DNA of 64,000 bases, taken from positions 278,752,001 to 278,816,000 of the forward strand of contig OZ024740.1 of assembly GCA_964016885.1 (NCBI GenBank), in the 5' to 3' direction. The translations under genes and the position numbers were made by a program. Positions 1 to 54,794 of this stretch are shown in pieces; position 1 is the stretch's first letter; each line of letters begins with the position of its first letter. A model generated the notes under the pieces. The model did not search any database and had not been told where the DNA came from. It saw only the letters and a list, made by a program, of their open reading frames with translations. This DNA comes from Eledone cirrhosa (lineage: Eukaryota).

Positions 1-3000
1 GTACTTCAGTGAATATGTGGGTGCTTCAGTGAGTATGTGGGTGCTTCAGTGAGTATGTGGGTACTTCAGTGAATATGTGGGTACTTCAGTGAGTATGTGC
101 GTGCTTCAGTGAGTATTGGGTACTTCAGTGAGTATGTGGGGACTTCAGTGAGTATTGGGTACTTCAGTGAGTATGTGGGTACTTCAGTGAGTATGTGGGT
201 GCATCAGTGAGTATGTGCGTGCTTCAGTGAGTATGTGGGTACTTCAGTGAGTATGTGGGTACTTCAGTGAGTATGTGGGTACTTCAGTGAGTATTGGGTA
301 CTTCAGTGAGTATGTGGGGACTTCAGTGAGTATTGGGTACTTCAGTGAGTATGTGGGTGCTTCATTGGGTATGTGGGTGCTTCAGTGAGTATGTGGGTGC
401 TTCAGTGAGTATGTGGGTGCTTCATTGAGTATGTGGGTGCTTCAGTGAGTATGTGGGTGCTTCAGTGAGTATGTGGGTACTTCAGTGAGTATGTGGGTGC
501 TTCAGTGAGTATGTGGGTGCTTCAGTGAGTATGTGGGTGCTTCAGTGAGTATGTGGGTGCTTCAGTGAGTATGTGCGTGCTTCAGTGAGTATGTGGGTCC
601 TTCAGTGAGTATGTGGGTGCTTCAGTGAGTATGTGGGTGCTTCAGTGAGTATGTGGGTGCTTCAGTGAGTATGTGGGTACTTCAGTGAGTATGTGCGTGC
701 TTTAGTGAGTATGTGGGTGCTTCAGTGAGTATGTGGGTGCTTCAGTGAGTATATGGGTACTACAGTGAGTATGTGGGTACTTCAGTGTGTATGTCGGTAC
801 TTCAGTGAGTATGTGGGTACTTCAGTGAGTATGTGGGTGCTTCGTGTGTATGTGGGTACATAAGTGAGTATGTGGGTACTTCAGTGAGCTTGTGGGTACT
901 TCAGTGAATATGTGGGTGCTTCAGTGAGTATGTGGGTGCTTCAGTGAGTATGTGGGTACTTCAGTGAGTATGTGGGTACTTCAGTGAGTATGTGCGTGCT
1001 TCAGTGAGTATTGGGTACTTCAGTGAGTATGTGGGGACTTCAGTGAGTATTGGGTACTTCAGTGAGTATGTGGGTACTTCAGTGAGTATGTGGGTGCATC
1101 AGTGAGTATGTGCGTGCTTCAGTGAGTATGTGGGTACTTCAGTGAGTATGTGGGTACTTCAGTGAGTATGTGGGTACTTCAGTGAGTATTGGGTACTTCA
1201 GTGCGTATGTGGGGACTTCAGTGTGTATTGGGTACTTCAGTGAGTATATGGGTGCTTCATTGGGTATGTTGGTGCTTCAGTGAGTATGTGGGTGCTTCAG
1301 TGAGTGCTTCATTGAGTATGTGGGTGCTTCAGTGAGTATGTGGGTGCTTCAGTGAGTATGTGGGTACTTCAGTGAGTATGTGGGTGCTTCTGTGAGTATG
1401 TGGGTGCTTCATTGAGTATGTGGGTGCTTCAGTGAGTATGTGGGTACTTCAGTGAGTATGTGGGTACTTCAGTGAGTATGTGGGTGCTTCAGTGAGTATG
1501 TGGGTGCTTCAGTGACTATGTGGGTGCTTCATTGAGTATGTGGGTGCTTCAGTGAGTATGTGGGTACTTCAGTGAGTATGTGGGTGCTTCAGTGAGTATG
1601 TGGGTACTTCAGTGAGTATGTGGGTGCTTCATTGATTATGTGGGTGCTTCAGTGAGTATGTGGGTACTTCAGTGAGTATGTGGGTACTTCAGTGAGTATG
1701 TGGGTGCTTCATTGAGTATGTGGGTGCTTCAGTGAGTATTGGGTACTTCAGTGAATATGTGGGTGCTTCAGTGAGTATGTGGGCGTTTCAGTGAGTATGT
1801 GGGTACTTCAGTGAGTATGTGGGTGCTTCAGTGAGTATGTGGGTACTTCAGTGAGTATGTGGGTGCTTCAGTGAGTATGTGGGGGTTTCAGTGAGTATGT
1901 GGGTACTTCAGTGAGTATGTGGGTACTTCAGTGAGTATGTGCGTGCTTCAGTGAGTATGTGGGTACTTCAGTGAGTATGTGCGTGCTTCAGTGAGTATGT
2001 GGGTGCTTCAGTGAGTATGTGGGTACTTCAGTGAGTATGTGCGTGCTTCAGTGAGTATGTGCGTGCTTCAGTGAGTATGTGGGTACTTCAGTGAGTATGT
2101 GGGTGCTTCAGTGAGTATGTGGGTGCGTCAGTGAGTATTGCGTGCTTCAGTGAGTATGTGGGTACTTCAGTGAGTATGTGGGTACTTCAGTGAGTATGTG
2201 CGTGCTTCAGTGAGTATGTGGGTACTTCAGTGAGTATGCGGGTACTTCAGTGAGTATGTGCGTGCTTCAGTGAGTATGTGGGTGCTTCAGTGAGTATGTG
2301 GGTACTTCAGTGAGTATGTGGGTGCTTCAGTGAGAATGTGGGTGCTTCAGTGAGTATGTGGGTACTTCAGTGAATATGTGTGTGCTTCAGTGAGTATGTG
2401 GGTGCTTCAGTGAGTATGTGGGTGCTTCAGTGAGTATGTGGGTACTTCAGTGAGTTTGTGGGTACTTCAGTGAGTATGTGGGTACTTCAGTGAGGTTGTG
2501 GGTACTTCAGTGAATATGTGGCTGCTTCAGTGAGTATGTGGGTGCTTCAGTGAGTATGTGGGTACTTCAGTGAGTATGTGGGTACTTCAGTGAGTATGTG
2601 CGTGCTTCAGTGAGTATTGGGTACTTCAGTGAGTATGTGGGGACTTCAGTGAGTATTGGGTACTTCAGTGAGTATGTGGGTGCTTCAGTGAGTATGTGGG
2701 TGCTTCATTGAGTATGTGGGTGCTTCAGTGAGTATGTGGGTACTTCAGTGAGTATGTGGGTACTTCAGTGAGTATGTGGGTGCTTCAGTGAGTATGTGGG
2801 TGCTTCAGTGAGTATGTGGGTGCTTCACTGAGTATGTGGGTGCTTCAGTGAGTATGTGGGTATTTCAGTGAGTATGTGGGTACTTCAGTGAGTATGTGCG
2901 TGCTTCAGTGAGTATGTGGGTACTTCAGTGAGTTTGCGGGTACTTCAGTGAGTATGTGCGTGCTTCAGTGCGTATGTGGGTGCTTCAGTGAGTATGTGGG

Positions 3001-6000
3001 TACTTCAGTGAGTATGTGGGTGCTTCAGTGAGAATGTGGGTGCTTCAGTGAGTATGTGGGTACTTCAGTGAATATGTGGGTGCTTCAGTGAGTATGTGGG
3101 TGCTTCAGTGAGTATGTGGGTGCTTCAGTGAGTATGTGGGTACTTCAGTGAGTATGTGGGTACTTCAGCGAGTATGTGGGTACTTCAGTGAGTATGTGGG
3201 TGCTTCAGTGAGTATGTGGGTATTTCAGTTAGTATGTGGGTGCTTCAGAGAGAATGTGCGTGCTTCAGTGATTATGGGGTACTTCAGTGAGTATGTGGGT
3301 ACTTCAGTGAGTATGTGGGTACTTCAGTGAGTATGTGGGTACTTCAGTGAGTATGTGGGTACTTCAGTGAGTATGTGGGTACTTCAGTGAATATGTGGAT
3401 ACTTCAGTGAGTATGTGGGTACTTCATTGAGTATGTGGGTGCTTCAGTGAGTATGTGGATACTTCAGTGAGTATGTGGGTACTTCAGTGAGTATGTGGGT
3501 ACTTCAGTGAGTATGTGCGTGCTTCAGTGAGTATGTGCGTGCTTCAGTGAGTATGTGGGTACTTCAGTGAGTATGTGGGTACTTCAGTGAGTATGTGGGT
3601 ACTTCAGTGAGTATGTGGGTACTTCAGTGAGTATGTGCGTGCTTCAGTGAGTATGTGGGTACTTCAGTGAGTATGTGGGTACTTCAGTGAGTAGGTGGGT
3701 ACTTCAGTGAGTATGTGCGTGCTTCAGTGAGTATGTGGGTGCTTCAGTGAGTATGTGGGTACTTCAGTGAGTATGTGGGTACTTCAGTGAGTATGTGGGT
3801 AATTCAGTGAGTATGTGGGTACTTCAGTGAGTATGTGGGTGCTTCAGTGAGTATGTGGGTGCTTCAGTGAGTATGTGGGTACTTCAGTGAGTATGTGGGT
3901 ACTTCAGTGAGTATGTGGGTGATTCAGTGAGTATGTGGGTGCTTCAGTGAGTATGTGGGTACTTCAGTTAGTATGTGGGTGCTTCAGATAGAATGTGCGT
4001 GCTTCAGTGAGTATGTGGGTACTTAAGTGAGTATGTGGGTACTTCATTGAGTATGTGGGTGCTTCAGTGAGTATGTGGATACTTCAGTGAGTATGTGGGT
4101 ACTTCAGTGAGTATGTGGGTACTTCAGTGAGTATGTGCGTGCTTCAGTGAGTATGTGGGTGCTTCAGTGAGTATGTGGGTACTTCAGTGAGTATGTGGGT
4201 ACTGCAGTGAGTATGTGGGTAATTCAGTGAGTATGTGGGTACTTCAGTGAGTATGTGGGTGCTTCAGTGAGTATGTGGGTGCTTCAGTGAGTATGTGGGT
4301 ACTTCAGTGAGTATGTGGATACTTCAGTGAGTATGTGGGTGATTCAGTGAGTATGTGGGTGCTTCAGTGAGTATGTGGGTACTTCAGTTAGTATGTGGGT
4401 GCTTCAGATATAATGTGCGTGCTTCAGTGAGTATGTGGGTACTTAAGTGAGTATGTGGGTACTTCAGTGAGTATGTGGGTGCTTCAGTGAGAATGTGGGT
4501 GCTTCAGTGAGTATGTGGGTACTTCAGTGAATATGTGAGTGCTTCAGTGAGTATGTGGGTGCTTCAGTGAGTATGTGGGTGCTTCAGTGAGTATGTGGGT
4601 ACTTCAGTGAGTATATGGGTACTTCAGTGAGTATGTGGGTACTTCAGTGAGTATGTGGGTGCTTCAGTGAGTATGTGGGTACTTCAGTTAGTATGTGGGT
4701 GCTTCAGAGAGAATGTGCGTGCTTCAGTGAGTATGTGGGTACTTCAGTGAGTATGTGGGTGCTTCAGTGAGTATGTGGGTGCTTCAGTGATTATGTGGGT
4801 GCTTCAGTGAGTATGTGGGTGCTTCAGTGAGTATGTGGGTGCTTCAGTGAGTATGTAGGTGCTTCAGTGAGTATGTGCGTGCTTCAGTGAGTATGTGGGT
4901 CCTTCAGTGAGTATGTGGGTGCGTCAGTGAGTATGTGGGTGCTTCAGTGAGTATGTGTGTGCTTCAGTGAGTATGTGGGTACTTCAGTGAGTATGTGGGT
5001 GCTTCAGTGAGTATGTGGGTGCTTCAGTGAGTATGTGGGTGCTTCAATGAGTATGTGGGTACTACAGTGAGTATGTGGGTACTTCAGTGAGTATGTCGGT
5101 ACTTCAGTGAGTATGTGGGTACTTCAGTGAGTATGTGGGTGCTTCGTGTGTATATGGGTACATAAGTGAGTATGTGGGTACTTCAGTGAATTTGTGGGTA
5201 CTTCAGTGAATATGTGGGTGCTTCAGTGAGTATGTGGGTGCTTCAGTGAGTATGTGGGTACTTCAGTGAATATGTGGGTACTTCAGTGAGTATGTGCGTG
5301 CTTCAGTGAGTATTGGGTACTTCAGTGAGTATGTGGGGACTTCAGTGAGTATTGGGTACTTCAGTGAGTATGTGGGTACTTCAGTGAGTATGTGGGTGCA
5401 TCAGTGAGTATGTGCGTGCTTCAGTGAGTATGTGGGTACTTCAGTGAGTATGTGGGTACTTCAGTGAGTATGTGGGTACTTCAGTGAGTATTGGGTACTT
5501 CAGTGAGTATGTGGGGACTTCAGTGAGTATTGGGTACTTCAGTGAGTATGTGGGTGCTTCATTGGGTATGTGGGTGCTTCAGTGAGTATGTGGGTGCTTC
5601 AGTGAGTATGTGGGTGCTTCATTGAGTATGTGGGTGCTTCAGTGAGTATGTGGGTGCTTCAGTGAGTATGTGGGTACTTCAGTGAGTATGTGGGTGCTTC
5701 AGTGAGTATGTGGGTGCTTCAGTGAGTATGTGGGTGCTTCAGTGAGTATGTGGGTGCTTCAGTGAGTATGTGCGTGCTTCAGTGAGTATGTGGGTCCTTC
5801 AGTGAGTATGTGGGTGCTTCAGTGAGTATGTGGGTGCTTCAGTGAGTATGTGGGTGCTTCAGTGAGTATGTGGGTACTTCAGTGAGTATGTGCGTGCTTT
5901 AGTGAGTATGTGGGTGCTTCAGTGAGTATGTGGGTGCTTCAGTGAGTATATGGGTACTACAGTGAGTATGTGGGTACTTCAGTGTGTATGTCGGTACTTC

Positions 6001-9000
6001 AGTGAGTATGTGGGTACTTCAGTGAGTATGTGGGTGCTTCGTGTGTATGTGGGTACATAAGTGAGTATGTGGGTACTTCAGTGAGCTTGTGGGTACTTCA
6101 GTGAATATGTGGGTGCTTCAGTGAGTATGTGGGTGCTTCAGTGAGTATGTGGGTACTTCAGTGAGTATGTGGGTACTTCAGTGAGTATGTGCGTGCTTCA
6201 GTGAGTATTGGGTACTTCAGTGAGTATGTGGGGACTTCAGTGAGTATTGGGTACTTCAGTGAGTATGTGGGTACTTCAGTGAGTATGTGGGTGCATCAGT
6301 GAGTATGTGCGTGCTTCAGTGAGTATGTGGGTACTTCAGTGAGTATGTGGGTACTTCAGTGAGTATGTGGGTACTTCAGTGAGTATTGGGTACTTCAGTG
6401 CGTATGTGGGGACTTCAGTGTGTATTGGGTACTTCAGTGAGTATATGGGTGCTTCATTGGGTATGTTGGTGCTTCAGTGAGTATGTGGGTGCTTCAGTGA
6501 GTGCTTCATTGAGTATGTGGGTGCTTCAGTGAGTATGTGGGTGCTTCAGTGAGTATGTGGGTACTTCAGTGAGTATGTGGGTGCTTCTGTGAGTATGTGG
6601 GTGCTTCATTGAGTATGTGGGTGCTTCAGTGAGTATGTGGGTACTTCAGTGAGTATGTGGGTACTTCAGTGAGTATGTGGGTGCTTCAGTGAGTATGTGG
6701 GTGCTTCAGTGACTATGTGGGTGCTTCATTGAGTATGTGGGTGCTTCAGTGAGTATGTGGGTACTTCAGTGAGTATGTGGGTGCTTCAGTGAGTATGTGG
6801 GTACTTCAGTGAGTATGTGGGTGCTTCATTGATTATGTGGGTGCTTCAGTGAGTATGTGGGTACTTCAGTGAGTATGTGGGTACTTCAGTGAGTATGTGG
6901 GTGCTTCATTGAGTATGTGGGTGCTTCAGTGAGTATTGGGTACTTCAGTGAATATGTGGGTGCTTCAGTGAGTATGTGGGCGTTTCAGTGAGTATGTGGG
7001 TACTTCAGTGAGTATGTGGGTGCTTCAGTGAGTATGTGGGTACTTCAGTGAGTATGTGGGTGCTTCAGTGAGTATGTGGGGGTTTCAGTGAGTATGTGGG
7101 TACTTCAGTGAGTATGTGGGTACTTCAGTGAGTATGTGCGTGCTTCAGTGAGTATGTGGGTACTTCAGTGAGTATGTGCGTGCTTCAGTGAGTATGTGGG
7201 TGCTTCAGTGAGTATGTGGGTACTTCAGTGAGTATGTGCGTGCTTCAGTGAGTATGTGCGTGCTTCAGTGAGTATGTGGGTACTTCAGTGAGTATGTGGG
7301 TGCTTCAGTGAGTATGTGGGTGCGTCAGTGAGTATTGCGTGCTTCAGTGAGTATGTGGGTACTTCAGTGAGTATGTGGGTACTTCAGTGAGTATGTGCGT
7401 GCTTCAGTGAGTATGTGGGTACTTCAGTGAGTATGCGGGTACTTCAGTGAGTATGTGCGTGCTTCAGTGAGTATGTGGGTGCTTCAGTGAGTATGTGGGT
7501 ACTTCAGTGAGTATGTGGGTGCTTCAGTGAGAATGTGGGTGCTTCAGTGAGTATGTGGGTACTTCAGTGAATATGTGTGTGCTTCAGTGAGTATGTGGGT
7601 GCTTCAGTGAGTATGTGGGTGCTTCAGTGAGTATGTGGGTACTTCAGTGAGTTTGTGGGTACTTCAGTGAGTATGTGGGTACTTCAGTGAGGTTGTGGGT
7701 ACTTCAGTGAATATGTGGCTGCTTCAGTGAGTATGTGGGTGCTTCAGTGAGTATGTGGGTACTTCAGTGAGTATGTGGGTACTTCAGTGAGTATGTGCGT
7801 GCTTCAGTGAGTATTGGGTACTTCAGTGAGTATGTGGGGACTTCAGTGAGTATTGGGTACTTCAGTGAGTATGTGGGTGCTTCAGTGAGTATGTGGGTGC
7901 TTCATTGAGTATGTGGGTGCTTCAGTGAGTATGTGGGTACTTCAGTGAGTATGTGGGTACTTCAGTGAGTATGTGGGTGCTTCAGTGAGTATGTGGGTGC
8001 TTCAGTGAGTATGTGGGTGCTTCACTGAGTATGTGGGTGCTTCAGTGAGTATGTGGGTATTTCAGTGAGTATGTGGGTACTTCAGTGAGTATGTGCGTGC
8101 TTCAGTGAGTATGTGGGTACTTCAGTGAGTTTGCGGGTACTTCAGTGAGTATGTGCGTGCTTCAGTGCGTATGTGGGTGCTTCAGTGAGTATGTGGGTAC
8201 TTCAGTGAGTATGTGGGTGCTTCAGTGAGAATGTGGGTGCTTCAGTGAGTATGTGGGTACTTCAGTGAATATGTGGGTGCTTCAGTGAGTATGTGGGTGC
8301 TTCAGTGAGTATGTGGGTGCTTCAGTGAGTATGTGGGTACTTCAGTGAGTATGTGGGTACTTCAGCGAGTATGTGGGTACTTCAGTGAGTATGTGGGTGC
8401 TTCAGTGAGTATGTGGGTATTTCAGTTAGTATGTGGGTGCTTCAGAGAGAATGTGCGTGCTTCAGTGATTATGGGGTACTTCAGTGAGTATGTGGGTACT
8501 TCAGTGAGTATGTGGGTACTTCAGTGAGTATGTGGGTACTTCAGTGAGTATGTGGGTACTTCAGTGAGTATGTGGGTACTTCAGTGAATATGTGGATACT
8601 TCAGTGAGTATGTGGGTACTTCATTGAGTATGTGGGTGCTTCAGTGAGTATGTGGATACTTCAGTGAGTATGTGGGTACTTCAGTGAGTATGTGGGTACT
8701 TCAGTGAGTATGTGCGTGCTTCAGTGAGTATGTGCGTGCTTCAGTGAGTATGTGGGTACTTCAGTGAGTATGTGGGTACTTCAGTGAGTATGTGGGTACT
8801 TCAGTGAGTATGTGGGTACTTCAGTGAGTATGTGCGTGCTTCAGTGAGTATGTGGGTACTTCAGTGAGTATGTGGGTACTTCAGTGAGTAGGTGGGTACT
8901 TCAGTGAGTATGTGCGTGCTTCAGTGAGTATGTGGGTGCTTCAGTGAGTATGTGGGTACTTCAGTGAGTATGTGGGTACTTCAGTGAGTATGTGGGTAAT

Positions 9001-12000
9001 TCAGTGAGTATGTGGGTACTTCAGTGAGTATGTGGGTGCTTCAGTGAGTATGTGGGTGCTTCAGTGAGTATGTGGGTACTTCAGTGAGTATGTGGGTACT
9101 TCAGTGAGTATGTGGGTGATTCAGTGAGTATGTGGGTGCTTCAGTGAGTATGTGGGTACTTCAGTTAGTATGTGGGTGCTTCAGATAGAATGTGCGTGCT
9201 TCAGTGAGTATGTGGGTACTTAAGTGAGTATGTGGGTACTTCATTGAGTATGTGGGTGCTTCAGTGAGTATGTGGATACTTCAGTGAGTATGTGGGTACT
9301 TCAGTGAGTATGTGGGTACTTCAGTGAGTATGTGCGTGCTTCAGTGAGTATGTGGGTGCTTCAGTGAGTATGTGGGTACTTCAGTGAGTATGTGGGTACT
9401 GCAGTGAGTATGTGGGTAATTCAGTGAGTATGTGGGTACTTCAGTGAGTATGTGGGTGCTTCAGTGAGTATGTGGGTGCTTCAGTGAGTATGTGGGTACT
9501 TCAGTGAGTATGTGGATACTTCAGTGAGTATGTGGGTGATTCAGTGAGTATGTGGGTGCTTCAGTGAGTATGTGGGTACTTCAGTTAGTATGTGGGTGCT
9601 TCAGATATAATGTGCGTGCTTCAGTGAGTATGTGGGTACTTAAGTGAGTATGTGGGTACTTCAGTGAGTATGTGGGTGATTCAGTGAGTATGTGGGTACT
9701 TCAGTGAGTATGTGGGTGCTTCAGTGAGTATGTGGGTGCTTCAGTGAGTATGTGGGTGCTTCAGTGAGTATGGGGGTACTTCAGTGAGTATGTGCGTGCT
9801 TCAGTGAGTATGTGCGTGCTTCAGTCAGTATGTAGGTACTTCAGTGAGTATGTGGGTACTTCAGTGAGTATGTGCGTGCTTCAGTGAGTATGTGGGTACT
9901 TCAGTGAGTATGTGGGTACTTCAGTGAGTATGTGTGTGCTTCAGTGAATATGTGGGTACTTCAGTGAGTATGTGGGTACTTCAGTGAGTATGTGGGTAGT
10001 TCAGTGAGTATGTGGGTGATTCAGTGAGTATGTGGGTGCATCAGTGAGTATGTGGGTACTTCAGTGAGTATGTGCGTGCTTCAGTGAGTATGTGGGTACT
10101 TCAGTGAGTATGTGGGTGCTTCAGTGAGTATGTGGGTACTTCAGTGAATATGTGGGTGCTTCAGTGAGTATGTGGGTGCTTCAGTGAGTATGTGGGTGCT
10201 TCAGTGAGTATGTGGGTACTTCAGTGAGTATGTGTGTGCTTCAGTGAGTATGTGGGTACTTCAGTGAGTATGTGGGTACTTCAGTGAGTATGTGGGTACT
10301 GCAGTGAGTATGTGGGTAATTCAGTGAGTATGTGGGTACTTCAGTGAGTATGTGGGTGCTTCAGTGAGTATGTGGGTGCTTCAGTGAGTATGTGGGTACT
10401 TCAGTGAGTATGTGGATACTTCAGTGAGTATGTGGGTGATTCAGTGAGTATGTGGGTGCTTCAGTGAGTATGTGGGTACTTCAGTTAGTATGTGGGTGCT
10501 TCAGATATAATGTGCGTGCTTCAGTGAGTATGTGGGTACTTAAGTGAGTATGTGGGTACTTCAGTGAGTATGTGGGTGATTCAGTGAGTATGTGGGTACT
10601 TCAGTGAGTATGTGGGTGCTTCAGTGAGTATGTGGGTGCTTCAGTGAGTATGTGGGTGCTTCAGTGAGTATGGGGGTACTTCAGTGAGTATGTGCGTGCT
10701 TCAGTGAGTATGTGCGTGCTTCAGTCAGTATGTAGGTACTTCAGTGAGTATGTGGGTACTTCAGTGAGTATGTGCGTGCTTCAGTGAGTATGTGGGTACT
10801 TCAGTGAGTATGTGGGTACTTCAGTGAGTATGTGTGTGCTTCAGTGAATATGTGGGTACTTCAGTGAGTATGTGGGTACTTCAGTGAGTATGTGGGTAGT
10901 TCAGTGAGTATGTGGGTGATTCAGTGAGTATGTGGGTGCATCAGTGAGTATGTGGGTACTTCAGTGAGTATGTGCGTGCTTCAGTGAGTATGTGGGTACT
11001 TCAGTGAGTATGTGGGTGCTTCAGTGAGTATGTGGGTACTTCAGTGAATATGTGGGTGCTTCAGTGAGTATGTGGGTGCTTCAGTGAGTATGTGGGTGCT
11101 TCAGTGAGTATGTGGGTACTTCAGTGAGTATGTGTGTGCTTCAGTGAGTATGTGGGTACTTCAGTGAGTATGTGGGTGCTTCAGTGAGTATGTGGGTACT
11201 TCAGTGAGTATATGGGTACTTCAGTGAGTATGTGGGTACTTCAGTGAGTATGTGGGTGCTTCAGTGAGTATGTGCGTGCTTCAGTGAGTATGTGGGTACT
11301 TCAGAGAGTATGTGGGTGCTTCAGTGAGTATGTGGGTACGTCAGTGAGTATGTGGGTACTTCAGTGAGTATGTGCGTGCTTCAGTGAGTATGTGCGTGCT
11401 TCAGTGAGTATGTGGCTTCTTCAGTGAGTATGTGGGTGCTTCAGTGAGTATGTGGGTACTTCAGTGAGTATGTGGGTACTTCAGTGTGTATGTGCGTGCT
11501 TCAGTGAGTATGTGGCTTCTTCAGTGAGTATGTGGGTGCTTCAGTGAGTATGTGGGTACTTCAGTGAGTATGTGGGTACTTCAGTGAGTATGTGCGTGCT
11601 TCAGTGAGTATGTGGGTGCTTCAGTGAGTATGTGGGTACTTCAGTGAGTATGTGGGTACTTCAGTGAGTATGTGGGTACTTCAGTGAGTATGTGCGTGCT
11701 TCAGTGAGTATGTGGGTGCTTCAGTGAGTATGTGGGTACTTCAGTGAGTATGTGGGTACTTCAGTGAGTATGTGTGCGTTTCAGTGAGTATGTGGGTGCT
11801 ACAGTGAGTATGTGGGTACTTCAGTGAGTATGTGCGTGCTTCAGTGAGTATGTGCGTGCTTCAGTGAGTATGTGGGTACTTCAGTGAGTATGTGGGTACT
11901 TCAGTGAGTATGTGGGTGCTTCAGTGAGTATGTGGGTGCTTAAGTGAGTATGTACGTGCTTCAGTGAGTATGTGGGTGCTTCAGTGAGTATGTGGGTACT

Positions 12001-12357
12001 TCAGTGAGTATGTGGGTGCTTCAGTGAGTATGTGGGTGCTTCAGTGACTATGTGGGTACTTCAGTGAGTATGTGGGTACTTCAGTGATTATGTGGGTACT
12101 TCAGTGAGTATGTGGGTGCTTCAGTGAGTATGTGGGTACTTCAGTGAGTATGTGGGTACTTCAGTGAGTATGTGGGTACTTCAGTGAGTATGTGGGTACT
12201 TCAGTGAGTATGTGGGTGCTTCAGTGAGTATGTGGGTACTTCAGTGAGTATGTGGGTGCTTCAGTGAGTATGTGGGTGCTTAAGTGAGTATGTACGTGCT
12301 TCAGTGAGTATGTGCGTGCTTCAGTGAGTATGTGCGTGCTTCGTGTGTATGTGGGTG
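1..12357. repeat. 20-bp minisatellite array, consensus CTTCAGTGAGTATGTGGGT(A/G), ~620 units, runs off the window start
   Basis: Continuous 20-bp periodicity with occasional 19-bp units (TATTGGG). Diagnostic variants recur at +5197 (1-4481 = 5198-9678) and +900 (9361-10260 = 10261-11160). Ends abruptly at ~12357. Confidence 0.98.
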
Positions 12358-14658: not shown

Positions 14659-14724
<66 letters not shown>

Positions 14725-14725
<1 letters not shown>

Positions 14726-14765
14726 GCTGCTGATGATAGCTAATAAGCTTGAAACTAGTTCATCG
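14725..14765 (+). ncRNA. Minimal hammerhead ribozyme, family A (GUU variant, one stem I mismatch)
   Basis: CGCTG-CTGATGA-T-AGCT-AATA-AGCT-T-GAAA-CTAG-T-T-CATCG. Confidence 0.7.
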
Positions 14766-15271
14766 TCCCTTTGTCAGTGTTGAACAAAAGGGCGACGATG
14801 GTTGCCGAACACTGTACGGCTTAATTCGGGCTGTTTGTTTACAAAGAAACCGAACATTATAATAAATGTTCGGTAAACCCATACGTACATATATATATAT
14901 ATATATGTGTGCATGTATGTATATATATACATACTACTGTACGTCTGTATACATATATGTATGTACGTATACATACTTATATTTAAGTATCAGCCGTACT
15001 AAGAGTGAGAAATTTCATTTCATTTCATTCTTTTCCATGTGTATATATATATATATATATGTAAGTATGTATGTATACGTACATACATATATGTATACAG
15101 ACGTACAGTAGTATCTATATGTATACATACATGTACACATATATATATGTACGTATTGGTTTACCGAACATTTATTATAATGTTCGGTTTCTTTGTAAAC
15201 AAACAGCCCGAATTAAGCCGTACAGTGTTTAGCAACCATCGTTGCCCTTTTGTTCAACACTGACAAAGGAA

Positions 15272-15312
15272 CGATGTACTAGTTTCAAGCTTATTAGCTA
15301 TCGTCAGCATCG
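15272..15312 (-). ncRNA. Minimal hammerhead ribozyme, family A (intact core)
   Basis: Minus strand: CGATG-CTGACGA-T-AGCT-AATA-AGCT-T-GAAA-CTAG-T-A-CATCG. Confidence 0.85.
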
Positions 15313-15746
15313 TATACCTTCCTGCCAGATAATTGAACGTCTGAAAGTATATACTTTCCTTATGCATATTAACGGCTGAGAAGCCTAATTTGCATATCGA
15401 ATTTGCATATTTCGGGCTGTTTGTTTACAAACAAACCGAACATTATAATAAATGTTCGGTAAACCGATACGTACATATATATATGTGTGTACATGTATGT
15501 ATATATATATACATACTACTGTACCTCTGTATACATATATGTATGTACGTTTACATACATACTTACATTTAAGTAACTGCCGTACTAAGAGTGAGAAATG
15601 AAATTTCGTTTCATTTTTTCCATTTATCGTTTTCGGTACCCTGGCCGACTAAACTCACTCGATATGCAAATTAGGCTGCTCAGCCGTTAATATGCATAAG
15701 GAAAGTATATACTTTCAGACGTTCAATTATCTGGCAGGAAGGTATT

Positions 15747-15787
15747 CGATGCTGACGATAGCTAATAAGCTTGAAACTAGTACATCG
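15747..15787 (+). ncRNA. Minimal hammerhead ribozyme, family A (intact core; predicted cut after 15782)
   Basis: Stem I CGATG/CATCG, core CTGACGA, stem II AGCT/AGCT, GAAA, palindromic stem III ACTAGT, GUA triplet. Confidence 0.85.
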
Positions 15788-16053
15788 TTCCTTTGTCAGT
15801 GTTGAACAAAAGGGCAACGATGGTTGCTCAACACTGTACGGCATAATTCGTCTGTTTGTTTACAAACAAACCGAACATTATAATAAATGTTCGGTAAACC
15901 GATACGTACATATATATATATGTACATGTATGTATATATATACATACTACTGTACGTCTGTATACATATATGTATGTACGTATACATACATACTTACATT
16001 TAACTAACTGCCGTACTAAGAGTGAGAAATGAAATTTCGTTTCATTTTTTTCC

Positions 16054-16114
<61 letters not shown>

Positions 16115-16932: not shown

Positions 16933-17171
16933 ATTACATAACTAAGCATTCTAACCATCCTGCCAGCATAACCAAGAACCTGGAAAGAAACGTTTCTTTG
17001 AGGCTTTCCCGTCTATCTACTAACGAGCATATTTTCAACGACCATTCCACATATTACAATTAAACTCTTGCTAGGAGTGGATTTGTCGATAAGGTAGCAT
17101 ATACAGAGTACGAGAATAGACCTAGAAGAAATAGATCCCGACGCATTATATGGTATAACCCACCATATAAT

Positions 17172-17822
17172 ATGGAGGTGGCCACACCATTAGCTAAGAT
17201 CTTTCTCTCCCTTATTATGAAGCATTTTGCCCCAACACATAAATATAGTAAAATTTTTAATAGAAATACCATTAAAATTTCTTACTCTACGACTCCTAAC
17301 CTTGCATATAACATCACAGCTTCAAATTTAGCTAAACTACCTAGCCGTAGGAACACGTGCAACCCTGTAGCTAGTACTAACTGTAATTGTAGGAATCGGG
17401 TTGACTGCCCCCTATCCGGGAAATGCCTCTCTAGTAACATTATCTACAAATCTAAGGTTGAAACATCCACGTCCCGTAGGGCCTACATTGGGTTAACCGC
17501 CAATAGATTCAAGCAGCGTCTTTACATGCATAGCCATTCTTTTCTTAACCCTTTAAGAAGGAATATGACGTCACTTTCAGCTTATATCTGGAGTCTAAAA
17601 GACAACCACACCCAATATAAGTTACACTGGGAGATCCTAGTTAGGGCTAGATCGTATAACGGAAATAAAAGACCATGTGACCTCTGCGCCGCTGAGGCCC
17701 TGGAAATACTCTACGCCAAAGACCACATCTTAAACAAAAAATCTGAGGCAATTTCAACTTGTAAACATAAATTGCACAAAACTTTCCTGTATTACAGCTC
17801 CATATTATACGCTAACGGATAG
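17172..17822 (+). CDS. PLE C-terminal GIY-YIG endonuclease ORF fragment
   Basis: IIY..YIG motif, RFKQRLYMH, Cys-rich linker CNC..CPL..C and CDLC. Confidence 0.85.
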   Translation: MEVATPLAKIFLSLIMKHFAPTHKYSKIFNRNTIKISYSTTPNLAYNITASNLAKLPSRRNTCNPVASTNCNCRNRVDCPLSGKCLSSNIIYKSKVETSTSRRAYIGLTANRFKQRLYMHSHSFLNPLRRNMTSLSAYIWSLKDNHTQYKLHWEILVRARSYNGNKRPCDLCAAEALEILYAKDHILNKKSEAISTCKHKLHKTFLYYSSILYANG

Positions 17823-20182: not shown

Positions 20183-21802
20183 TATATATTGGTAAACGGA
20201 ATAGAAAATGCTGACAAATTGTTCACAGTTGAAAAATGGTTTAATTAGGAATAAAAGAGTATTAGTGATTGTATGGGTTAGTATTCAGTTGTGGTTTTAA
20301 GTTTTTAAGTTTTTACCGGTTGCGCATTTCTAAATGCTTTTCAAAAATAATTTTGAGATAGAGTGTCCGTGCTGTTTGCTCTGATCTGATTAGTTTTGGG
20401 AATTCTACCTGTTTTTATGTTAAAAAAATGGCTCCAGCGTTATTTTTGTGTTGCAAAAATGCTTGTGGTCAAAACAATTTTGATTGGTCGGTAGAGGTCA
20501 TGTGAATGTAAAAAGTTGATTTTGCGCCAAGACTGTTTTTATGTTTTTTTATGGCAACCCCTATATCAGGCGAATGAATTCAGTTGTGTATATTTTTGCA
20601 AGAATGCAAAAACATCACAAATCGAATAGAGTTCTCAACAGAAGGGTTTAAATTAACATAAGCTATTCATCAGTCAATAGAATCAACTAAAAAATCAAGA
20701 AAATTAACTGGTCAATAGCTAGAGTCTGGAGAATAATACAAACATAAATTGGGATGATTTTGGGCGGCACAGGTATCAATGTGTTCACTCAGTAAAAAAA
20801 TGCGATAGACCCAACTGTGGCATTTGCATCAACCTAATAGAGGGTTCGGAATTCTATTTCAAAGATGGACAACGTTTTATAGTAAAACACAATTTCACAT
20901 GTGCATCGGAAAATCTAATATATGTATTAACTTGTTCAGGTTGTCGAGAACAATACATAGGCCAGACCAAAAACAGCCTCCGCCAACGCATGACTGTCCA
21001 TAGATCCCAAATTAAAATACGGGAATACAGGAAAATACCACTGAGTGAACACATTGATACCTGTGCCGCCCAAAATCATCCCAACTTCAGAATCTTTCCC
21101 CTCTACAAATTTAAAGATAATGCCACCCACACCCAGCGCATCAGCAAGGAATCTTACTTCATTAACAAATACGGACCCCGTCTAAACACTTCTCCCTAAG
21201 ACGAACCCACAACATACACACGTCAACATACATACCTACATCAGCACACATCTCTACCCACATATAAACACAATGACACACGTAAACACACATGCTCTAT
21301 GGTGCAATACAAAAAAATATATGTGCATATATGTGTATGTATATATGTATATATATATATATGTAGTGAAAATATATATGTGTGTGTGTGTGTGTGTATA
21401 TATATATAGTGAATATCATTTCACACCTTTTATTGTTAAGATTGTTGATGTTCTATTAAGAGAACCGATTTTACTGAAAAAATCGAATAATGTACACCAT
21501 TTTACCAGGGGGGAAAAAAATACTGGTCCACCCACACACGCACACACACACACACACATATATATACACAAACACATACACACGCGTACATCAACATACA
21601 AAGAGACTTATACACACACACACACACACGCACTTCTCCGTATAAGACAAAAGCTGAAAAATATCTTTTGACCTTCGAATGACTCTGCTGTGTGTATGTA
21701 CGCTCACACACACACACACACACACACACACTTATCTTAATAGCCATTTGACACACATCGCTGGTGGCTATTGTCGCAGCATCGAACACCTTACTACTAC
21801 TA

Positions 21803-39611: not shown

Positions 39612-39656
39612 AGTCATAGTTCTTTCGTCACACACTCTGTGACCTCTTCAGTGACT
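39612..39656 (-). ncRNA. Mirror copy of the pLTR hammerhead
   Basis: Exact reverse complement of 42355-42399. Confidence 0.85.
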
Positions 39657-40353
39657 GGGGATTTCTTTCTTCGTTTCTGTGCCTTTCCTTTCTTCTATCC
39701 TACGCCATTTTGTTTGTGTGTGGGTTGCGTGCTCAGTTTGCGCATGCGCCACATCCGGGTGTCTGTGTGTGTTTGTGTTCATTTTTCTATTTTTCTATTT
39801 TTATATTTATATTTGTTTGTTTATTTATTTATTTATTGTTGGTTGGTTGTTTGTTCTATGTGTGTGTGTGTTTTCATTTTGTCTTGTGTGTGTTTTCATT
39901 TTGTGTGTGTTTTCAATTGTAAGTTGTTTATATATGTGTGTGTGTGTTTTCATTTTGTCCTTAATTGTAAGTTGTGATGTTGCTGTTCCACTCATATTTT
40001 CTATTTAATTTTGGTTTTAATTCTTTTATGCTTACTGCCTCTGTAATTTGCCTAAACATTGCGTCTTTCTTGTGTGTGGATTCTATTTTTATTTCTATGC
40101 TCTCTAATTTACCCCTGTGTTCTATCTTAGCATGTTGGTAGAGCACAGATGATTCTTTACTATCTTGGAGGTCTCGCCAGTGTTCATTTATTCGTTCCCC
40201 TATACTACGAGCTGTCTCACCTATGTACACTATATTTTTGTTTCTACATTGTCCCTCAGTACATCTTATGCTATATACTACATTTCTAGTTTTACAGTTA
40301 ATATGGGGGCTTATTTTACAGGTTATACATTTCTTATCTATACATGAGGGTCT

Positions 40354-41394
40354 TTGGAACGATCTGGGGACCTAACAAACTGCATAATAGGCAGTATGGA
40401 TGTTGTGTCCCTGTATCCATCTATTGACGTGGATTTTGCTGTGGAGAAATGCGTCGAAATGATCAGCGAGAGCAAGGTTGAGTTCCGTGGGATTGATACC
40501 AGTGAGCTGGGACTTCTACTTAAGCTTACCCATAGTAATAGTTACCTAGACACTTATGACCTTAGCAACCTGTGCCCTACAAGACCAGCAAGAGGCAGAC
40601 CACCTACCATTACCTCAATGGCCAAGAAAACCCACACAGATAGATGGAACGGGTGGACCAGAGCCATACGGACACCCGAAAACCACGATGAACTGAAGAA
40701 AATGATTGCACATGCGGTAGGGGCCAGCATAAAATTAACCCTTAAGGAACATATGTTCAAATTTAATGGTAAAACATATGCCCAAGAGGAAGGAGCAGCC
40801 ATTGGTGTTAGCATTGCAGGCGACATAGCTAACTTGTTCATGGTATGGTGGGACAGTAGACTTAAACAAAAACTTAAAGAACAATTAGAAGACAGATTAA
40901 CCCTGATAATGTACTCCCGCTACGTAGATGATATAAACATCGTAGTTAAGACACCCCCACTAAAGAACAGTCAGGAACCTGAGAAAAACACAATGGAAAG
41001 CATCCAGCAAATAGCAAACTCCATCCACCAGAGCATTAGAGTTACTATAGACTACCCAAGTAGACACCCCAACCATCGATTACCTGTACTAGACACAGAG
41101 CTCTGGTTAGATACTATTAACAACCAAAAACAAATCCTCCATTCCCATTATGCCAAACCCATGACTTCCAAACATCTGATCCACCGAAACTCGGCCATTT
41201 CGGACCATACCAAAATCAACATACTGATTGCGGATTTGATACGGGTGATGAGAAATGTGTCCCGCATGTGCAACCCCGAAGAACTAGAGAGACACATACA
41301 ACACTTCATCCACCGTATGCAGTTCTCTGGCTACAATCAGAGAGATAGAATCAGAGTGTATAAAGGAGCCAGAACCAAATGGAAAAAATGGTAA
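40354..41394 (+). CDS. PLE reverse transcriptase (N-truncated)
   Basis: SMDVVSLYPSI, QEEGAAIG..IANLFM, RYVDDI, LPVLD, HYAKP motifs. Confidence 0.93.
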   Translation: MERSGDLTNCIIGSMDVVSLYPSIDVDFAVEKCVEMISESKVEFRGIDTSELGLLLKLTHSNSYLDTYDLSNLCPTRPARGRPPTITSMAKKTHTDRWNGWTRAIRTPENHDELKKMIAHAVGASIKLTLKEHMFKFNGKTYAQEEGAAIGVSIAGDIANLFMVWWDSRLKQKLKEQLEDRLTLIMYSRYVDDINIVVKTPPLKNSQEPEKNTMESIQQIANSIHQSIRVTIDYPSRHPNHRLPVLDTELWLDTINNQKQILHSHYAKPMTSKHLIHRNSAISDHTKINILIADLIRVMRNVSRMCNPEELERHIQHFIHRMQFSGYNQRDRIRVYKGARTKWKKW

Positions 41395-42050
41395 ATAATG
41401 ACATAAATGGGACCTGCCCCTTGTATAGGAGCAAATTTTGGAATAGAATAGAAAGAACTAAGAACAAGGCCAATAGAATAAACTCATGGTATGATAGCAA
41501 TAAATACCAGAGTGTAATGTTCATCAATACAACCCCTAGAGGTGAACTAGCCTACAAATTTAGAAGGGCCCTAAAGAAACATAATCTCAATATTAAGATA
41601 GTAGAAAGACCTGGTACCTCCTTAAAAACACTTATTAGCAAGACATACCCGTTCCAAAGACCCTCATGTATAGATAAGAAATGTATAACCTGTAAAATAA
41701 GCCCCCATATTAACTGTAAAACTAGAAATGTAGTATATAGCATAAGATGTACTGAGGGACAATGTAGAAACAAAAATATAGTGTACATAGGTGAGACAGC
41801 TCGTAGTATAGGGGAACGAATAAATGAACACTGGCGAGACCTCCAAGATAGTAAAGAATCATCTGTGCTCTACCAACATGCTAAGATAGAACACAGGGGT
41901 AAATTAGAGAGCATAGAAATAAAAATAGAATCCACACACAAGAAAGACGCAATGTTTAGGCAAATTACAGAGGCAGTAAGCATAAAAGAATTAAAACCAA
42001 AATTAAATAGAAAATATGAGTGGAACAGCAACATCACAACTTACAATTAA
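41379..42050 (+). CDS. PLE Cys-linker + GIY-YIG endonuclease, separated from RT by a 1-nt frameshift
   Basis: CIDKKCITC..NCKTRNVVYSIRC..YIGETARSIGERINEH..RQITEAVSIKELKPKLN. Confidence 0.9.
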   Translation: MEKMVNNDINGTCPLYRSKFWNRIERTKNKANRINSWYDSNKYQSVMFINTTPRGELAYKFRRALKKHNLNIKIVERPGTSLKTLISKTYPFQRPSCIDKKCITCKISPHINCKTRNVVYSIRCTEGQCRNKNIVYIGETARSIGERINEHWRDLQDSKESSVLYQHAKIEHRGKLESIEIKIESTHKKDAMFRQITEAVSIKELKPKLNRKYEWNSNITTYN

Positions 42051-42354
42051 GGACAAAATGAAAACACACACACACATATATAAACAACTTACAATTGAAA
42101 ACACACACAAAATGAAAACACACACAAGACAAAATGAAAACACACACACACATAGAACAAACAACCAACCAACAATAAATAAATAAATAAACAAACAAAT
42201 ATAAATATAAAAATAGAAAAATAGAAAAATGAACACAAACACACACAGACACCCGGATGTGGCGCATGCGCAAACTGAGCACGCAACCCACACACAAACA
42301 AAATGGCGTAGGATAGAAGAAAGGAAAGGCACAGAAACGAAGAAAGAAATCCCC

Positions 42355-42399
42355 AGTCACTGAAGAGGTCACAGAGTGTGTGACGAAAGAACTATGACT
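42355..42399 (+). ncRNA. Minimal hammerhead ribozyme in PLE pLTR (predicted cut after 42394)
   Basis: AGTCA-CTGAAGA-G-GTCACA..TGTGAC-GAAA-G-AA-C-T-A-TGACT. Confidence 0.85.
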
Positions 42400-42612
42400 A
42401 TATATATATAAACAACTATCTGGTTGTGGAACCAACCAACCAACCAGAAATTTATAAATTTGTAAATTTATAAATATATATTAAATTAAATTGAAGTGAA
42501 AGCAACTGGTGCGTGTGTTTCTTATTGGCAACATGACCCTCCCAAAGTATAACAATATCGGTTTCAACACACGATTTCAGATAAAGAATCTTGCTAAACA
42601 AATTCAGAAACG

Positions 42613-49839: not shown

Positions 49840-50420
49840 CCCCTCATTCTTACTCTTGTGTTGACCTACCAACTGTCAGAACTAGTGAAAATATATGATA
49901 TTTTCTAAAATATACAGTGACTGCTTGGCCTGATTTGCATATTAGCAGACTGGTTGGTCAGTCAGATCTGCATATTAGCAAGCAGATCCACTGATCAGCC
50001 AGATTTGCATATCAGCAGCCTGGCCAGTCAGTTTCCTGTATACAAGCGATCAATGGCCGGCTTTGCCATATTCAAATTTTACAAAAAAGGATTTTCGCTC
50101 TACATAGCTGAATACAATAAATGTAATCTAAGCTTTTCGAATATTAATAATAATATTCGATTCGTTTGCAATTATGCAAACAAGCCTCATTTTTAAAGCC
50201 ATGTCAGTGGAATGACCCCCTTATTCTTGCTCTTATGTTGGCATGTAAACAGAACTGCAGACGCTAATGTTTCTGGGTATCACCCTTCATCAGTACAGTT
50301 CACTGTTCACCTGCCAACTGCCAGAGCTAGTGAAAATATATGATATTTTCTAAAATATACAGTGACTGATCGGCCTGATTTGCATATTAGCAGACTGGCT
50401 GATCAGTCAGATCTGCACAT
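49840..50420 (-). mobile_element. Retrozyme-like partial tandem, family F (445-bp period) with octamer repeats
   Basis: 49864-49975 is repeated at 50309-50420. ATTTGCAT at 49933, 50003 and 50378. Hammerhead at 50252-50301. Confidence 0.75.
50252..50301 (-). ncRNA. Type I hammerhead ribozyme (family F)
   Basis: Minus strand: GAACTGTA-CTGATGA-A-GGGT-GAT-ACCC-A-GAAA-CATTAGCG-T-C-TGCAGTTC. GUC triplet. Stem I extends to GTTGGCA/TGCCAAC. Confidence 0.85.
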
Positions 50421-52429: not shown

Positions 52430-53862
<1,433 letters not shown>

Positions 53863-54006: not shown

Positions 54007-54794
54007 ACATATTAAATGTATAAATTGAGTTAGGAACTCAAAATAGTCTCTTACAATAAAATAGCTCTAAGAAAGAGATATTTCTGAGCCGTATATTATA
54101 ATAGAATATAAAAGAAAAGCGAACACAGATATATATAGATATATGTGTTCAAATCGTAAGGGACCTGATTCGCTAAGGTATAAAGAATACTAACTATAGA
54201 TAATTGGGTTCGCTTGTCTCAATTTAAGAAAAAATTAAGAAAATAAATACAAACCGGAATTGTGCTAACTACCAATCACCCAGACAACTTGTTGTTGTTT
54301 CGCAAATTTAGTTGTGAATAGAAATACTAATCCAAGCTCATCAGTGGGTGATAAATTAGTATCCTAGACACATCTATGTATGTTATATATAAAAAATAAA
54401 ACACCGCACATGGCATCCTAGCGAGTCTCACAAACCCACACCACTAAAAATAGCAGCCAGGTTTACTCGACATTTGAAATGTGTTCGCTTTTCTTTTATA
54501 TTCTATTATAATATACGGCTCAGAAATATCTCTTTCTGAGAGCTATTTTGTTGTAAGAGACTATTTTGAGTTCCTAATTCAATTTATACATTTAATATAT
54601 TCGGCTCCGTTAATTTGTTGAGCTATTTCAAATGTCGAGTAAACCTGGCTGCTATTTTTAGTGGTGTGGGTTTGTGAGACTCGCTAGGATGCCAATGTGC
54701 GCTGTTTTATTTTTTATATATAGCATACATAGATGTCTCTAGGATACTAATTTATCACCCACTGATGAGCTTGGATTAGTATTTCTATTCACAA
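54007..54794. mobile_element. Hammerhead-bearing non-coding element, A-X-B-A'-s-B' arrangement (~500-nt permuted monomer)
   Basis: 54007-54127 is the reverse complement of 54481-54599. 54312-54480 is the reverse complement of 54626-54794. Confidence 0.8.
54275..54352 (-). ncRNA. Canonical type I hammerhead ribozyme
   Basis: Minus strand: ATCACCCA-CTGATGA-GC..TTAGT..ACTAA..GC-GAAA-CAAC-AACAA-GTTG-T-C-TGGGTGAT. 8-bp stem I, full stem III, GUC triplet. Confidence 0.9.

Follow-up and report, generated by a model that had tools for sequence, protein, structure and literature searches.

Do the tandem hammerhead repeats at this locus carry a promoter of their own and, if so, which polymerase would read it? 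The window, by which we mean the whole 64-kb stretch of DNA that was analysed, contains two families of such repeats, A and F, that share a module upstream of the ribozyme core. The first-pass annotation had read this module as a conserved internal promoter of the snRNA type, built around an octamer and analogous to that of newt satellite 2. The motifs of A and F and both hammerhead cores were all found where it had placed them, and the distances it gave from octamer module to core, 81 nt in A and 85 nt in F, are correct. That the two families share the module beyond chance is also borne out, since the pattern has 21,777 exact matches genome-wide against 0 in the reversed control (a count in which F may match several times per copy) and the A-F module alignment has a z of 5.7 (0/300 shuffles). 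From the sequence evidence set out below we consider it probable that the module acts as a promoter; its polymerase class is less certain.

Two related retrozyme families

By their structure, A and F are recognised as related high-copy non-LTR retrozyme families with monomers of about 430-470 nt and a type I hammerhead. A first look genome-wide gave 1,342 candidates for A and 1,546 for F in a genome of 3.0 Gb. The copies are 400-600 nt long and circularly permuted, in many cases with the 5' part inverted, and they end in (AT)n between unrelated flanks; in tandem arrays the period is 427-502 nt. The A and F ribozymes differ in their helix sequences, as had been stated (alignment z 0.1). The accompanying claim that the rest of the monomers differs as well does not hold, since outside the module and the ribozyme A and F align with a z of 9.8 (0/300 shuffles), and alignment shows A, F and a further family, J, to be homologous. 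The sharing of the module by A and F is, to judge from these alignments, partly plain common descent.

Four copies of family A with the putative promoter are present in the window (15663 +, 15396 -, 52895 +, 53431 +), together with an A copy that lacks the promoter and a single insertion of family F, which has two heads. In the first of these, on the + strand, the motif ATATGCAAAT (15662-15671) overlaps the box TATGCAAATTAG (15663..15674), which matches the element found at -77..-80 of host type-3 Pol III genes. The box is followed by a hairpin, GGCTG-CT-CAGCC, and by its own inverted pairing partner in the predicted RNA (15674..15698), and then by an AT-rich palindrome with the TATA-like stretch GTATATAC (15701..15716), whose first T, at 15706, is 43 nt past the box. 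CTGGCAG (15731..15737) includes the A at 15736 where transcription is predicted to start (TATA+30), and the type I hammerhead with its extended helix I occupies 15738..15792, with the core CTGACGA at 15752 and a predicted cut after 15782. The remainder of the monomer (15793..16056) is hairpin-rich; close to its end there is a T-run, and (AT)n comes next. An inverted second copy (15056..15400, - strand) has its own box at 15396, a TATA and a hammerhead core at 15307, and the copy without a promoter (14721..15038, + strand) starts just ahead of the hammerhead. Two tandem units (52726..53811, + strand) with boxes at 52895 and 53431 are preceded by an inverted piece.

The family F copy (50420-49859) lies on the - strand. 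Its counterpart of the ATATGCAAAT motif is at 50387-50378, and its proximal box, TATGCAAATCAG (50375..50386), is a weaker match to the host model and the last of up to three box-bearing sub-repeats of 33 nt; 16/30 family F copies have three. Downstream are an AT-rich palindrome (50332..50350), in which a weak TATA-like stretch lies 44-46 nt past the box, CTGGCAG (50324) and a type I hammerhead (50252..50301; core CTGATGA at 50293, predicted cut after 50260). The monomer is completed within 49859..50251, which also holds a second head; this unit has three sub-repeats, at 50011, 49974 and 49941, but its hammerhead, the ribozyme domain, is missing.

Each monomer of A and F carries a predicted type I hammerhead. 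Rfam returned no hammerhead for A or F at gathering score; below it, A gave a weak HH9 match (17.3 bits, E 0.054) and F gave none, even weak, so the ribozyme call rests on the core nucleotides and the compensating helices. The cores have the type I form CUGANGA...GAAA...GUH with a very short helix III and a helix I of 5 bp in A and 8 bp in F, and in the sister families the helix sequences are swapped while the pairing is kept. The tally of copies puts a non-canonical pair at the base of helix II, U-U in A and A-A in F, and ribozyme activity is therefore not assured. Rfam microRNA matches were discarded as AT-repeat noise.

The ends of family A copies were determined from 101 anchor matches in copies chosen by their downstream pattern and not by the module. 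The 3' ends are strongly clustered, 72 of the 83 resolved lying at +257..267 or +307..319, two narrow zones that precede (AT)n; 46/86 copies run upstream beyond the box. Copies that extend across the cut site, or are longer than a single monomer, are numerous and require a template that is circular or multimeric. The 5' ends have no sharp peak at the predicted start (5/86 at -2..+5) or at the cut (0/86); 16/86 fall at -20..+5, mostly upstream of the predicted start, which means that the start cannot be read from genomic 5' ends. The 3' ends of A, fixed internally at (AT)n, resemble the fixed internal priming at AT-rich targets that the relevant part of PMC11167929 gives as the mechanism of Penelope-like elements.

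Fragments of a Penelope-like reverse transcriptase (RT) and of GIY-YIG are present in the window. In one Penelope-like element (39651-42480), RT and GIY-YIG fragments occupy 40348-42047, with a hammerhead-like core at 42360; an inverted copy lies at 39651. Further Penelope-like fragments lie at 17064-17819 and 20723-21196, the second with a Pfam GIY-YIG match. Hammerhead-like cores that lack the box were also seen at 54344 (-), 28953 (-), 44200 (-) and 60890 (+), and helix I is well paired by eye in those at 54344 and 28953. A 12-kb satellite with a 20-nt unit and a strong strand skew occupies positions 4-12357.

The host snRNA-class promoters and their likeness in the retrozymes

In the host, the octamer forms the core of a 12-nt box, TATGCAAAT(T/G)AG, that begins at -77 to -80 and is followed by TATA at -30 in seven independent type-3 Pol III promoters (three U6, U6atac, RNase MRP and two tRNA-Sec). 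The three independent U6 promoters have TATGC(A/T)AAT(G/T)AG, its first letter at -77 to -79, and TATA at -30. The U6atac and RNase MRP genes were fetched by Rfam with no use of the motif and thus provide an independent test: the best U6atac locus has TATGGAAATTAGG at -78 and the sole RNase MRP match has TATGCAAATGAGG at -78, both with TATA at -30, and the MRP sequence ATATGCAAATGAGGC differs from family A at 1/15 positions. Two host versions of the box are not canonical octamers. The distance from box to TATA in host genes is 47-49 nt. The host model left out 14 lower-scoring U6 and five lower-scoring U6atac matches, all without the box, and these look like retrocopies. Five of the 12 top U6 loci, all of them array members, have an insertion of ~190 nt between the box and the U6 gene. 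Downstream of each of the two tRNA-Sec genes, short hairpins (CCCTT...AAGGG) occur as repeats and end in T-runs.

Among 34 U1, U2 and U5 loci with 23 distinct upstream sequences, none has the box within -100 at a level of at least 10/12 positions; YCAGT is found near -56 in 34/34, and a TATA-like stretch at -30. This proximal core of the host Pol II snRNA genes bears no evident likeness to the Pol III box. The presence of the box in U6, U6atac and MRP makes the octamer the proximal mark of host type-3 Pol III genes, and the comparison with host U1 and U6 upstream regions that had been proposed finds a likeness for the U6 class and not for U1, U2 or U5. The newt analogy would imply the Pol II class, which the octamer does not mark in this host. 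As for the distal enhancer position, the octamer is not there: the distal motif, about -265 to -250 (near -260) upstream of most U1, U2 and U6 genes, is ATTAYYTCCCTT(G/A), which is not an octamer, and the octamer of the first reading keeps its place only as the core of the box. TCCCTT was not found upstream of U5, U6atac, MRP or tRNA-Sec. The host Pol II snRNA genes, with a TATA-like stretch and a core of no evident likeness to the Pol III box, differ in this from the vertebrate arrangement.

The host signal also leads back to the ribozymes. A search pattern made from U6 promoters only, with no ribozyme term, gave 37 matches (0 in the control). Six of the loci did not belong to U6 genes: three had a hammerhead downstream, two were tRNA-Sec genes and one was a U6 fragment. 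When the box was required with a hammerhead core 70-100 nt on, and the main A and F forms were excluded, 8,422 matches were obtained (control 0), including families labelled J, K, G and H. In at least six families the order of box, TATA-like stretch and ribozyme is maintained; all of J, K, G and H have the box, most have the TATA-like stretch 41-48 nt on, and their cores are at 89-109 nt. Between-family anchored identity reaches 0.94 in the box and drops to about 0.3 to both sides of it; since the box was a search requirement for J, K, G and H, its conservation in these families is ascertained. Neither AGGCNGNTCAG nor CTGGCAG is kept in these four families. Of the proposed conserved internal promoter module, the snRNA-class part is supported, by a box and TATA that match the upstream regions of host U6, U6atac, MRP and tRNA-Sec, and the other two motifs fall away; in the predicted folds AGGCNGNTCAG and CTGGCAG are explained as RNA helices.

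Within family A, 50 copies collected by a downstream anchor have non-majority letters at 1.7% in the box, 2.4% in the TATA hairpin and 6-9% in the flanks, and the box is thus the least variable part of the monomer. Columns with shared variants number 1/53 in the module and 23/187 elsewhere (p=0.034, with CpG content uncontrolled). No variant at 10% or above falls in 15662-15691 (A) among the variants listed, and none in 50359-50420 (F), where eight variants in all give low power; the contigs are of unrecorded kind in both cases.

How closely do the retrozymes follow the host model? The 12-nt box and the TATA-like stretch are in the same order as in host type-3 promoters and likewise upstream of a structured RNA. 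The four A promoters rank first to fourth in the window on a model made solely from host Pol III promoters, with 13-16 bits for the box; the combined A score is 21.7, and window-wide shuffle maxima reach 20 bits in 8/100 and 22 in 2/100. F scores 4 bits for the box, the first 9 nt of which are exact, and 0.3 for TATA, against 21-28 bits for host boxes. Once host spacing is enforced, the A and F promoters fall out of the top matches. The box-to-TATA distance is 43 nt in A, 44/46 in F and K, 42 in J, 41-45 in G and 48 in H, so that TATA lies at the host distance in H only, not in A or F, and the spacing is 3-6 nt shorter than in host genes in 5/6 families, which speaks against Pol III. In insects, according to the part of PMC1761439 that deals with it, snRNA promoter spacing is tightly kept. 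The retrozymes also depart from the host promoters past the box, where CCT(A/G) gives way to YCA, and no -260 element was seen by eye in their monomers.

A probable internal promoter and the alternatives to it

The reading we prefer, that the host U6-class signal in a monomer of A or F acts as an internal type-3 Pol III promoter, is in our judgement as likely as not. The broader model, which we put forward tentatively and with slightly less confidence, is that a retrozyme radiation of about 30,000 genomic sites and at least six families spreads via a U6-type Pol III promoter inside its circular RNA, that cutting and rolling reverse transcription avoid the loss of an upstream promoter, and that the octamer-like box at -78 is an unusual code of the host's Pol III snRNA genes. 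Transcription would start about 30 nt past TATA, at 15736 in A and 50310-50312 in F, 15-20 nt before the catalytic core and at the beginning of the ribozyme's extended helix I. The read-through transcript of a tandem copy would then pass the next promoter and the next ribozyme, and two ribozyme cuts would release a circle enclosing the promoter. A Penelope-like reverse transcriptase may prime within the circle at AT-rich targets and copy more than one turn, which would bring the promoter back ahead of the ribozyme in the new insertion. Every monomer examined has T4-T9 runs inside it, before the next promoter, at which Pol III would stop before the second ribozyme, and leaky termination is therefore needed. 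Runs of T4+ are absent from the first 200 nt in 28/28 A and 18/24 F copies, which is not significant, and neither is T-run avoidance in the first 240 nt (P 0.18-0.36).

It also speaks against Pol III that A and F fit the geometry of Pol II snRNA promoters. The alternative would be an internal promoter of that type, as in newt satellite 2, with the octamer as proximal activator, TCAG(T) and the TATA-like stretch as core, and the T-runs read through. The TCAG of A lies 26 nt before TATA and 56 nt before a C|A start, and the ATCAGT of F 57 nt before its C|A start, much as YCAGT is placed in the U1/U2/U5 core of the host; the F sub-repeats, moreover, resemble U2 cores (GATCAGTGGAT, ATCAGTCACT), and the newt repeat is a precedent in the portions of PMC2220036 and PMC6765202 that concern it. 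We nevertheless think Pol II transcription unlikely, since J, K, G and H do not keep the TCAG, the host Pol II model gives only -1.3 bits for A and 6.6 bits for F, and the box is in no host Pol II snRNA gene. Type-3 promoters in humans are able to drive Pol II transcription as well (PMC6023835).

The module might also have no present role as a promoter. Descent would then account for its persistence, together with RNA folding or the need to be recognised by the reverse transcriptase that moves the element, and transcription would be supplied by external read-through. The homology of A, F and J favours this, as do the strong folds of the monomers as circles (z -5.8, -8.4 and -10.1). The box is paired at 11/12 positions in the predicted fold of A and J and its partner in K changes along with it, and this predicted pairing weighs against a promoter. 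The AT-rich palindrome is a hairpin and CTGGCAG a helix strand in the predicted RNA, where the CTGGCAG of A can pair in the circular fold with TTGTCAG immediately beyond the ribozyme. The motifs thus also fold as hairpins and are under a second, RNA-level constraint. Folding and descent leave unexplained, however, the match to seven host promoters unrelated by descent and the position relative to TATA, and the box is fixed while its partner changes and is unpaired in the local fold of F; we rate this account a little below the Pol II one, as improbable. Much the least credible, to our mind, is descent of these families from an autonomous Penelope-like element whose ordinary pseudo-LTR promoter the module would be. 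Retrozymes have been argued to derive from Penelope pseudo-LTRs (bioRxiv 10.64898/2026.07.22.740005, in the passages on their origin), and one K head adjoins a truncated element of the RT/GIY-YIG type, but the 3' end of that element has no K head, and the box is absent from the 130 nt upstream of the hammerhead-like core at 42360 in the window, beside the Penelope-like ORF, and of four other core-like sites. A shared terminal repeat was considered for the K head beside the RT fragment and rejected, as there is adjacency only.

Relation to known hammerhead repeats

If the U6-type reading is true, it would show how passage through an RNA intermediate is possible for an external promoter. The SINE-like Sm-alpha repeat of Schistosoma has an internal promoter of the tRNA type, whereas the signal in A and F is a gene-external U6-type box with TATA. 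In the pages of PMC6765202 on this repeat, the Pol III promoter precedes the ribozyme, and cleavage leaves it at the 3' end of the monomer, which makes tandem copies necessary; the proposal for A and F follows the same promoter-restoring logic. Newt satellite 2, also a tandem hammerhead repeat with an internal snRNA-type promoter, is reported to use Pol II in the corresponding parts of PMC2220036 and PMC6765202, while the box here marks the Pol III snRNA class of the host. Promoters of animal hammerhead repeats could be traced, in the portions of the literature cited here, for these two, Sm-alpha with Pol III and newt satellite 2 with Pol II.

The closest relatives in other respects are the metazoan non-LTR retrozymes of Cervera and de la Pena 2020 (PMC7229834), which, in the sections of that paper that describe them, share with A and F short, low-GC, tandem non-coding monomers, a type I hammerhead and co-occurrence with Penelope-like elements. 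The copy structure of A and F fits a circular template as proposed there; their monomers, at 430-470 nt, are at the long end of that range and lack the usual G-C at the base of helix II. Those sections describe no promoter, the word 'promoter' is absent from the portion of the 2026 preprint on retrozyme origin (bioRxiv 10.64898/2026.07.22.740005) considered here, and the word 'ribozyme' is absent from a published octopus repeat annotation. In the mainly open-access literature surveyed, we found no retrozyme described as having an external promoter of the U6 type.

The strong transcription of animal retrozymes is largely unexplained, and the 80-nt element offers a predicted start, a predicted polymerase and a natural spacing series of 41-48 nt. 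It would also be a source of compact native U6-class promoters for the expression of small RNAs or guide RNAs in the animal group of the host. A U6atac retrocopy was found joined directly to an inverted family F copy, a fusion which suggests that one enzyme copied both RNAs.
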